Origin: Escherichia phage vB_EcoM-813R1
DNA: 64,000 nucleotides
Strand: one strand, 5' to 3'
Sequence record: ON470617.2
Shown: positions 55,898 to 56,896 of the stretch, piece by piece
Layout of the letters: each line of letters begins with the position of its first letter
Numbering within the stretch: position 1 is the stretch's first letter
Program-made: the position numbers and the translations under genes
The notes under the pieces: generated by a model
What the model saw: the letters and a program-made list of their open reading frames with translations, nothing else
Told to the model about the DNA's origin: nothing
Databases searched by the model: none

Positions 55898-56896
55898 TTA
55901 TCCGTTACCGCGCGACGGTTTCTGCGTGATAAACGTCTCAAGCATCTTTTCCGCAATTGCCGACCAGGTGTGACACTGGACCTTTTCAGCATTTTTCACG
56001 CGATCAACGCGAGCAATAACCTCATCCCAATCAATCCGCGACTTGATAACCATATGGTTCACCAACTCCAGGCGATCCGGCGGAAGGCAATCGGGCGGAG
56101 TTAATATCAACGCTCCACACATTGCCGCCTCAAGAACAGTTAATCCAAGGCTTTCGGGATGCGTAACGATAAAAATGTCACTCTTACGCAATTCAGCTGC
56201 AAATTCGGTTGCTGGTACCGGAGTCCGTCTGTATGGGGTTACCGAAATATTCCCCGGCTCAATGGTAACCAATCCGTCATCGGTCAGCGTTTTGGCCTCA
56301 TACGGAACGGTCAGGCGCTGAAGGTTCATAAGGATACTTAAGGAGTGATCAAACCCACTAACATCAAATGCCGCGTGGTCTACAAAAATACGCAGAACAT
56401 CGTCTGTTTTGGTTTCCAGATGGAACAGCTCCTGATTCGCTGCCCATCCAACATGTTTGTTAAAACGATTATGACGCTCTAACCTGCCGGGATTATCCAG
56501 GTACCGCCAGGTATCATCGCGGACAGTAAAAGTAATATCGACTGGTGCCGAATCCAGCATAGAACCGTCATATACCTGGGCTACCCATCCAGAGAATCGG
56601 CGACACAGTTGCATGCCTATTTCCCCTGGGTACCGTAGTAAAATACCTCAATCCTGGTGCCAAAATGGCCTTCGCAGAACATGCGGTCGCAGCAGTCAAC
56701 ACAGCTTCAACATAATCCTCCGGGCTTTCGACGCCAGGGAATATGGACGATGGTATTGCAATGTTACCCCTGCCTCACTAAAGGCGCAGGCCAGGTTATA
56801 AGCCCACATTTCCGTATATGTTTTCACATCACTGATGGCTGCAAATTTTCGCCCAATGATCAGGATGTTCATCGGCTTTTCCTCATTCCATTGCAT
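55898..56896 (-). CDS. glycosyltransferase-like protein (GT-B fold, GT1/GT4-type C-terminal motif); several frame interruptions
   Basis: ORF 55898..56614 contains …IFIVTHPESLGLTVLEAAMCGALILTP… (E-x7-E-type motif); ORF 56696..56896 starts MNILIIGRKF (Rossmann-like); readable protein in a third frame between them. Confidence 0.45.

Follow-up and report, generated by a model that had tools for sequence, protein, structure and literature searches.

What does the gene directly behind ban in P1-type phages do, with which proteins does it work, and is it really broken in Escherichia phage vB_EcoM-813R1? We addressed these questions in a stretch of 64,000 nucleotides (nt) of this phage (sequence record ON470617.2; hereafter the window). 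The gene lies at 55898–56896 on the minus strand, and a preliminary description had read it as a GT-B glycosyltransferase gene broken by frame interruptions. It appears as two open reading frames (ORFs) that share one frame. The first encodes 66 amino acids (aa; 56696–56896, minus strand) and begins with MQWNEEKPMNILIIGRKF, and the second encodes 238 aa (55898–56614, minus strand) and contains HPESLGLTVLEAAMCGALILTP. These fragments, both peptide motifs quoted for them, the position and the interruptions were all found where that description had placed them. After two single-base errors are fixed, the coding region is 999 nt long and encodes a 332-aa protein, a predicted GT4-like glycosyltransferase of GT-B fold. 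Its sequence makes it virtually certain that this is the P1-type gene dbn, called glt in phage P7. Comparison of gene contexts indicates that Dbn likely acts jointly with three further transferase-like proteins, PmgO, PmgP and PmgQ, as one module.

The gene itself is already known. A megablast search with 55800–57000 matched 17 P1-type phage records at 96–98.5% nt identity across 1201 nt. In all 17, which include P1, P7, RCS47 and SJ46, a 999-nt dbn gene follows ban directly. The protein matches PHROG 2518, labelled 'unknown function', over residues 1–332 (E = 1e-238). The gene is also carried by ~440 plasmid records and ~460 E. coli replicons, and its product falls in a 90%-identity cluster of 2431 member sequences that NCBI names 'glycosyltransferase family 4 protein'. 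Annotation goes back to the P1 and P7 genome records, so what had been put forward as a fresh observation was on record: P1 lists dbn as 'function unknown, possible glycosyltransferase', P7 lists glt as 'putative glycosyltransferase', and the RefSeq entry of RCS47 reads 'glycosyltransferase family 4 protein'.

The predicted structure of Dbn is a confident model with two Rossmann-like domains, the GT-B fold, and it matches GT-B enzymes strongly. Its structural neighbours include the lipopolysaccharide (LPS) core enzymes WaaG and WaaB, plus WbnH and PglH-type enzymes. UDP-GlcNAc 2-epimerases are also among the fold matches. The frame-corrected protein matches Pfam PF00534 (Glycos_transf_1) with E = 3.5e-5 and 23.8 bits, in residues 229–315 only. 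Dbn and its homologues score 23.8 to 24.7 bits in the C-terminal half (E 2e-5 to 4e-5), short of the gathering cut-off of 26.4 bits, and this equally sub-threshold match is seen in 16 of 18 homologues. The profile match thus persists after frame correction, though under the cut-off, and leaves the glycosyltransferase claim unrefuted. Neither NCBIfam nor PADLOC returned anything meaningful for Dbn, PmgO, PmgP or PmgQ.

Within the putative nucleotide-sugar-binding C-terminal domain, Dbn carries an E-x7-E motif, E248 SLGLTVL E256 (ESLGLTVLE; 56129–56155, minus strand). Across 61 diverse members with a mean column identity of 34%, residues D173, H174, H246, E248, G251, E256 and G261 (P1 numbering) are invariant. 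H246 is the His that comes ahead of the E-x7-E motif, the Asp-His pair D173-H174 opens the C-terminal domain, and a GWAAD motif is nearly invariant in the family. A scan of 1.84 billion representatives with a hidden Markov model (HMM) returned a compact family of 360 clusters, mostly of 300–340 aa. The family is rare in species-representative genomes, where only three loci were found. Some members (P0097, P0103, P0114, P0129, P0130 and others) reach 520–550 aa through an extra C-terminal domain of ~200 aa. Most of these extra domains contain no Pfam domain; one is a class I methyltransferase, a fusion that suggests glycan tailoring without being decisive. The model supports a GT4-like glycosyltransferase of GT-B fold, and with the strong structural match and the invariant E-x7-E the preliminary description held up on this point. 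Judged by its conserved residues, Dbn is probably an active glycosyltransferase.

Three other matches were set aside. A sequence search of Protein Data Bank (PDB) chains with Dbn gave chance matches only (affibody, blasticidin M; E of at least 0.25). A match of the family profile to KtrA (E = 4.5e-5) summed two identical weak stretches, each with E = 0.76, in a Rossmann-like segment, and is fold-level noise. A Pfam 'GT4-conflict' match in one of the 18 members (E = 0.009) was judged insignificant.

With which proteins would such an enzyme work? In phage contigs L010, L011 and L012, the genes flanking the dbn homologues are homologues of window proteins at 47.4–49.9 kb, 6–8 kb away from dbn. 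These window genes are pmgO, pmgP and pmgQ of P1, whose annotation there is 'putative morphogenetic function' only. pmgO (49311–49973, minus strand) encodes a sialyltransferase/DUF115-like putative glycosyltransferase that matches PHROG 4603, 'alpha-2,3-sialyltransferase', with E = 4e-74; it also has a weak Pfam match to MptE-like (DUF115) and a weak match to a Cst-II profile (E = 0.04). pmgP (48787–49413, minus strand) is its paralogue (hhalign probability 99.1%, E = 1.7e-18). pmgQ (47416–48116, minus strand), whose 3' end is broken by a homopolymer error near 47536, encodes a GT8-like putative glycosyltransferase of GT-A fold with an invariant DxD motif. Skp1 GalT, GlyE and glycogenin are structurally close to PmgQ, which also resembles LgtC, a GT8 alpha-1,4-galactosyltransferase of lipooligosaccharide (LOS).

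These four families travel together across unrelated phages. By tblastn against 50,697 phage records, Dbn was found in 21, PmgQ in 30, PmgP in 26 and PmgO in 72, and every one of the 21 records with Dbn has both PmgQ and PmgP. In two lytic coliphages, EP_H11 and IME392, the genes are contiguous in the order O-P-Dbn-Q (42319–45002 in EP_H11), and the four also stand side by side in metagenomic phages. Twelve loci outside P1, metagenomic or chromosomal, had adequate flanks; 11 of them have a PmgQ homologue within 10 kb, including loci whose Dbn member is only 27–31% identical to Dbn. At seven non-P1 loci that homologue lies directly downstream of the dbn homologue, in one case with an intervening 68-aa ORF. 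Of the three partners, PmgQ shows the tightest link to Dbn in these contexts. Dbn is missing from Cronobacter phage JK004, Citrobacter phage phiNP and phage phi456, which have PmgO, PmgP and PmgQ, and Dbn without this core was never met; Dbn therefore looks like an optional fourth enzyme. Further recurring neighbours of the module elsewhere are weakly GT-A-like proteins of 189–194 aa, proteins of 231–255 aa and 'minor tail protein'-like proteins of 213–219 aa. No homologues of these were found within the window. The partner flippase or sugar-activation genes sought at this locus were not found, and the partners are instead the transferase-like pmgO, pmgP and pmgQ. As far as the literature was searched, the link of dbn to these genes is new. 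That search returned no paper tying dbn to glycosylation or to pmg genes, and none reporting glycosylation in P1. A December 2025 transcriptome preprint still places dbn among 'uncharacterized loci', and the main texts of a P1 proteome and knockout paper (PMC9024508) and of a mutagenesis-method paper (PMC10067587) are silent on dbn, pmgO, pmgP and pmgQ.

Chromosomal homologues of all four genes (pmgQ-pmgP, dbn and pmgO) were seen in three Enterobacterales assemblies: Serratia plymuthica CP180221.1 (L008), L009 and a Buttiauxella metagenome-assembled genome (L095). Here they are interleaved with holin and phage lysozyme genes (plus a DUF2514 gene in L009), LysR/LuxR-type regulators and a chaperone-usher fimbrial operon. 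This arrangement could be a domesticated module, possibly one that glycosylates a secreted or surface protein.

In P1 the genes of the proposed module are divided between two operons. A bivalent C1 operator, Oban (Op72), lies at the ban promoter (61428–61455; two overlapping consensus matches with 0 and 2 mismatches), and the P1 annotation has it control ban expression. A second C1 operator, Oppp (Op83; 50114–50130, plus strand; 4 mismatches), lies upstream of pmgN-pmgO-pmgP-ppp-pmgQ at the position of the annotated P1 Oppp. With C1 operators at both sites, expression is expected in the lytic phase, and we infer that both parts of the module are switched on in lytic development and not in the lysogen. 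The P1 annotation also lists predicted sigma-70 promoters, P1dbn and P2dbn, inside ban; our promoter scan found a single promoter-like site in the dbn region, below chance expectation. Between pmgP and pmgQ, the slot taken by dbn in L011, L012 and EP_H11 is filled in the window by ppp, a Ser/Thr phosphatase gene (48113–48805). This suggests that a past rearrangement moved dbn behind ban in P1. In a CRISPR interference screen, dbn, pmgO, pmgP and pmgQ were non-essential for P1 plaque formation, and a knockout library is cited there with the same result (PMC10695390).

What would such a module modify? In the mechanism that we propose, Dbn would work in the cytoplasm as a small retaining GT-B enzyme of GT4 type. 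The E-x7-E, His and Asp-His signature of its C-terminal domain would hold a nucleotide-sugar, and the acceptor would be held by the divergent N-terminal domain. Dbn would be the optional member of a conserved phage glycosylation module made up of PmgQ (GT8-like, with DxD) and the paralogues PmgO and PmgP. This module would be split in P1 between the ban operon and the pmgN–pmgQ operon, both active in lytic growth. The four enzymes together would build a short glycan, possibly ulosonic-acid-capped, on an acceptor accessible from the cytoplasm. The likeliest acceptor would be a phage structural protein, and its modification would be dispensable for laboratory plaque formation. As a whole, this chain of steps, with the virion-protein acceptor included, falls a little short of an even bet.

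Several observations bear on the acceptor. No flippase, undecaprenyl phosphate (Und-P) priming transferase, polymerase or base-modifying enzyme was found in any examined context. With no flippase, priming or polymerase partner, the acceptor should be reachable in the cytoplasm. In some phages the genes sit among structural genes. In L101 the tail sheath and tail tube genes flank the module, and phiNP, L011 and L012 have it immediately upstream of terminase, in the late region. In Pseudomonas phage D3, a PmgO-like gene stands between the genes for the major head and head-tail adaptor proteins, and a few genes further on comes one for a methyltransferase. The tblastn match to PmgO in D3 (L104, NC_002484; 4837–5555) covers both orf6.5 and orf7, maybe one gene split in annotation. 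Other loci carry sugar-tailoring genes. A distant family member in L097 stands beside two FkbM-type methyltransferases, and one in L098 stands beside a nucleotidyltransferase/mannose-phosphate-isomerase-like gene and a methyltransferase. In L099, genes for a pyruvyl transferase, a methyltransferase, a GNAT protein, a DegT aminotransferase, an epimerase/dehydratase and a CMP-sugar synthetase form a pseudaminic/legionaminic-like pathway; beside it is a 482-aa protein that includes a PmgO/P-like domain.

A plausible donor would be CMP-Kdo, which E. coli K-12 produces. The PmgQ relatives Skp1 GalT, GlyE and glycogenin glycosylate proteins, as do the DUF115 relatives of the Maf type. Maf enzymes are reported in a 2020 preprint to make Ser/Thr-O-linked N-acetylneuraminic acid (Neu5Ac) and Kdo (bioRxiv 10.1101/2020.06.03.131540). 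A virion protein as the acceptor nevertheless remains speculative, and we hold it as a possible but rather doubtful assignment. A broader version is somewhat unlikely: that P1 and scattered phages of Gram-negative hosts hold an unrecognised cytoplasmic pathway for O-glycosylation of the virion proteins they encode. These phages would be EP_H11/IME392, phiNP, JK004, D3-like phages, Xanthomonas/Stenotrophomonas jumbo phages and several metagenomic lineages. One sugar each would come from PmgQ, from PmgO/PmgP, for which CMP-Kdo is a possible donor in E. coli, and from the optional Dbn. Acting as one unit, pmgO/P/Q and dbn would decorate the particle, which might protect it against attack by the host or the environment, or adjust its adsorption.

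In contig L097 (120 kb, GCA_040384345.1), the distant Dbn/PmgQ/PmgP module lies among genes for very large proteins. In these, ADP-ribosyltransferase toxin domains are fused to NUDIX, Mu-F-like head and Acb1 domains, and the proteins resemble ejected anti-defence effectors.

Several points weigh against a module that glycosylates virion proteins. Dbn scores below the Pfam gathering cut-off and is matched by no NCBIfam model. Many of the co-occurring records are closely related P1-type genomes, so that the independent lineages are few: the P1-like phages, EP_H11/IME392, the Stenotrophomonas jumbo phages and ~8–10 metagenomic lineages. A place among structural genes may say more about where morons insert than about function. 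EP_H11 has its four genes in the midst of small early-type ORFs, not structural genes, and the P1 genes belong to C1-controlled sigma-70 operons, not to Lpa-dependent late operons. The outer core of LPS or LOS is classically assembled by the same set of GT4, GT8 and sialyltransferase-like enzymes, on the cytoplasmic face and without a dedicated flippase, and this assembly builds the receptor of P1 itself. Glycosylation and these four genes are also absent from the main text of the P1 virion proteome paper (PMC9024508).

The foremost alternative is that the target of Dbn, PmgQ, PmgO and PmgP is the LPS core of the host, or some other glycolipid of the envelope, remodelled at the cytoplasmic face of the inner membrane. 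The benefit would be an altered terminal-glucose receptor for P1 and other phages, giving superinfection exclusion, less readsorption of progeny or, through leaky or internal promoters, lysogen conversion. The enzymes suit such a task: WaaG, WaaB, WbnH and PglH-type enzymes are structural neighbours of Dbn, PmgQ resembles LgtC, and PmgO weakly resembles Cst-II, a LOS sialyltransferase. The E. coli outer-core enzymes WaaO, WaaR and WaaJ belong to GT8. Core assembly also requires no dedicated flippase, which would explain why none was found; the predicted promoters P1dbn and P2dbn could permit expression in a lysogen; and in Serratia and Buttiauxella homologues of the four genes are chromosomal. 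However, expression in a lysogen is not what the C1 operators at the ban promoter and upstream of pmgN lead one to expect, and new LPS cannot mask pre-existing receptors within a single lytic cycle. The placement of related genes within the head or tail clusters of some phages also speaks against an envelope target, and a membrane-anchoring segment is not evident, although no rigorous test for one was made. We know of no report of an LPS change in P1 lysogens. Overall we consider LPS or another envelope glycolipid an unlikely acceptor, ranked below a virion protein and well above DNA. O-antigen conversion in particular, one of two roles proposed in the preliminary description, finds no flippase, GtrA/B-like or Und-P priming gene near dbn or the examined homologues. 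Lysogen expression is further argued against by the place of dbn in the operon of the C1-repressed ban promoter.

The other role proposed there was hypermodification of DNA, in which Dbn would glycosylate phage DNA against restriction like the T4 alpha- and beta-glucosyltransferases or the arabinosyltransferase of phage HY126. It would suit a phage that invests in anti-restriction (Dar, Dmt), but Dbn matches DNA glycosyltransferases no better than dozens of GT-B enzymes that do not act on DNA. Neither dbn nor ~15 homologous contexts has a dCMP/dUMP hydroxymethylase, a flavin hydroxylase or a gene for the deoxynucleotide (dNTP) pool nearby, and no acceptor-base enzyme (hydroxymethylase or hydroxylase) is annotated in the P1 region shown. 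An oligosaccharide also suits a module of four transferases better than a base adduct does. P1 DNA is a standard substrate for cloning and restriction and has no known sugar adduct. With no base-hydroxymethylase or hydroxylase gene in any examined context, this role is very improbable, and nothing directly supports either of the two roles proposed in that description.

Is the gene broken? Alignment with P1, P7, RCS47 and MH422554 shows exactly two length changes in dbn, and the total stays at 999 nt. At the first break (56735–56740), a base has been lost from a CCCC run at gene nt 158; the window has GGG at 56738–56740, inside a CCAGG Dcm site at 56735–56739. At the second (56623–56629), a base has been gained in a GGG run at gene nt ~272; the window has CCCC at 56623–56626, which overlaps a CCTGG Dcm site at 56625–56629. 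Between the breaks 38 codons are shifted and include two stops, and the second break restores the original frame.

The same kind of change recurs throughout the last ~19 kb of the window (44360–64000). Compared with two independent references, this part has ~24 one-base insertions or deletions (indels), for example at 45087, 47536, 52019, 54633, 55296, 55576, 55777, 58482 and 61102. Nearly all are deletions within runs of 3 to 7 identical bases. CCWGG sites are overlapped by 8 of 23, both of the dbn changes included. With 68 CCWGG sites in the stretch, ~3% overlap would be expected (chance probability below 1e-5, binomial estimate). Genes 5 and 6, tail/baseplate genes essential in P1, are broken by this type of indel, as is pmgQ. 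Since a viable phage could not carry broken essential genes, the breaks in genes 5 and 6 are errors. None of the 440 plasmid and 460 E. coli records has both dbn changes together. CP121349.1, an unrelated plasmid assembly and the closest record of all, has the identical −1 at gene nt 158, as expected of a systematic base-calling error at a methylated motif.

We weighed whether dbn could nonetheless be decaying in this phage, with genuine frameshifts tolerated in a non-essential gene. The gene is dispensable, and the P7 copy has a genuine-looking nonsense change, TGG to TGA at codon 31, with its coding sequence annotated from an internal start. This change (glt nt 93 in AF503408) hits the nearly invariant Trp31 and is possibly a real loss-of-function allele in the sequenced stock. 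Against decay in the window stand the siting of both changes at CCWGG/homopolymer sites, the like damage to essential genes 5 and 6, the recurrence of the −1 in CP121349.1 and, indels aside, a ratio of nonsynonymous to synonymous substitution (dN/dS) against P1 of 0.12. Among viral contigs (IMG/VR), a scan dominated by P1-type loci and used for intactness and dN/dS only, 68 of 81 P1-type loci have an intact 999-nt dbn ORF and none of the 81 has a gap. Their 45 distinct alleles have a median dN/dS of 0.12, and the corrected window gene gives 0.117 against P1, values that point to purifying selection on dbn. A decaying pseudogene is accordingly very unlikely. The two frame breaks are very likely base-calling errors at Dcm-methylated CCWGG/homopolymer sites, and dbn is almost certainly intact in the real phage DNA. 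The gene is thus interrupted in this assembly, as first described, and as biology the interruptions are sequencing artefacts. Throughout, the window has the look of a long-read assembly that was left unpolished, and any apparent pseudogene in it deserves distrust.

That Dbn has the GT-B fold without being a transferase, as a sugar-nucleotide epimerase, a hydrolase or a non-catalytic scaffold, would fit the UDP-GlcNAc 2-epimerases among its fold matches, its sub-threshold Pfam scores and an N-terminal domain that lacks the usual glycine-rich loop, but is scarcely credible given the invariant E-x7-E, a GT4 signature, and the constant company of other transferases.

The surroundings of dbn add detail to this picture. 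Its placement is conserved, immediately downstream of ban and convergent with baseplate gene 5. ban, a DnaB-like helicase gene by the ORF list and the P1 annotation, lies upstream (56896–58266, minus strand). Its stop codon and the annotated ATG of dbn share 1 nt (TAATG, 56894–56898), an overlap that places the two genes in one operon. The true start of dbn may lie further in. Homologues outside P1 start at the equivalent of Met9 of the annotated 332-aa product, nine P1-type loci from IMG/VR match residues 9–332 only, and the Met9 codon (56870–56872, minus strand) has GAGGAA 6–11 nt upstream. With the start shared by non-P1 homologues and a good ribosome-binding site, Met9 is probably the real start codon. 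Downstream, baseplate gene 5 on the opposite strand ends with a stop codon at 55849–55851. A GC-rich hairpin at 55851–55877, followed by U-runs on both strands, folds with −17.6 kcal/mol (z = −4.25; none of 200 shuffles as stable) and is a probable bidirectional terminator common to dbn and gene 5. The consensus promoter and terminator scan gave nothing convincing and missed this hairpin, which was folded separately.

Upstream of ban, 58630–60520 of the window does not align with the P1 segment carrying tciA/B/C (TerB-like). Instead, an ORF with an SPFH/Band-7 domain is found there (58649–59476, minus strand), as in MH422554. Accessory genes seem to have been exchanged here within the ban operon.

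These results recast dbn as a long-annotated P1 accessory gene whose apparent disruption is an assembly error, and the window needs polishing before pseudogenes are called in it. They give a concrete lead for dbn, pmgO, pmgP and pmgQ, to which no function has been assigned since annotation of the P1 genome record. Should virions or host LPS be decorated by the module, this would bear on P1 host range and transduction tools, on immunogenicity in phage therapy and on protein glycosylation by phages of Gram-negative bacteria, a largely unexplored subject. The module is directly testable with existing P1 knockout methods.

How does this module compare with known systems? P1 Dbn (YP_006544) and P7 Glt (AAQ07543) are the same gene, 97–98% identical, of equal length and at the same position; the window copy differs from them by the two single-base sequencing errors and a few substitutions, and the P7 copy stops at codon 31. 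Compared with retaining GT4 enzymes of GT-B fold, such as BshA, PimA/PimB', WaaG and sucrose-phosphate synthase, Dbn is only 10–15% identical and ~50 residues shorter. It also differs from them in its divergent N-terminal domain, without the Gly-rich loop, and in its Pfam score under the gathering cut-off. T4 alpha-glucosyltransferase (GT72) and the phage HY126 glycosyltransferase (PDB 9iqz) are no closer to Dbn than unrelated GT-B enzymes, and base-modifying companions are absent at dbn.

Seroconverting prophages with GtrABC or O-acetyltransferases likewise encode a sugar modification. The flippase GtrA, GtrB (GT2) and the membrane GT-C enzyme GtrC have no counterparts at dbn, whose product is a predicted soluble GT-B enzyme of the C1-repressed ban operon. 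No GtrA, GtrB, GtrC or O-acetyltransferase partner was found in the window neighbourhood or in ~15 homologous loci with Pfam-labelled neighbours. PmgO and PmgP resemble Maf flagellin glycosyltransferases and Cst-II through weak MptE-like (DUF115) and Cst-II matches, all below curated thresholds. Unlike Maf or Cst-II, they are single-domain proteins of ~200 aa. To our knowledge, neither P1 nor E. coli K-12 has a CMP-nonulosonate pathway, and CMP-Kdo would be the only such donor there.

The virion-glycosylation operons of mycobacteriophages encode glycosyltransferases and methyltransferases that O-glycosylate capsid and tail-tube proteins. The P1 module differs in its Gram-negative hosts, and its likeness in way of working is a proposal. 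As in the mycobacteriophage operons, several cytoplasmic transferases of the phage, often accompanied by methyltransferases, are encoded in or beside structural clusters and are dispensable for growth.

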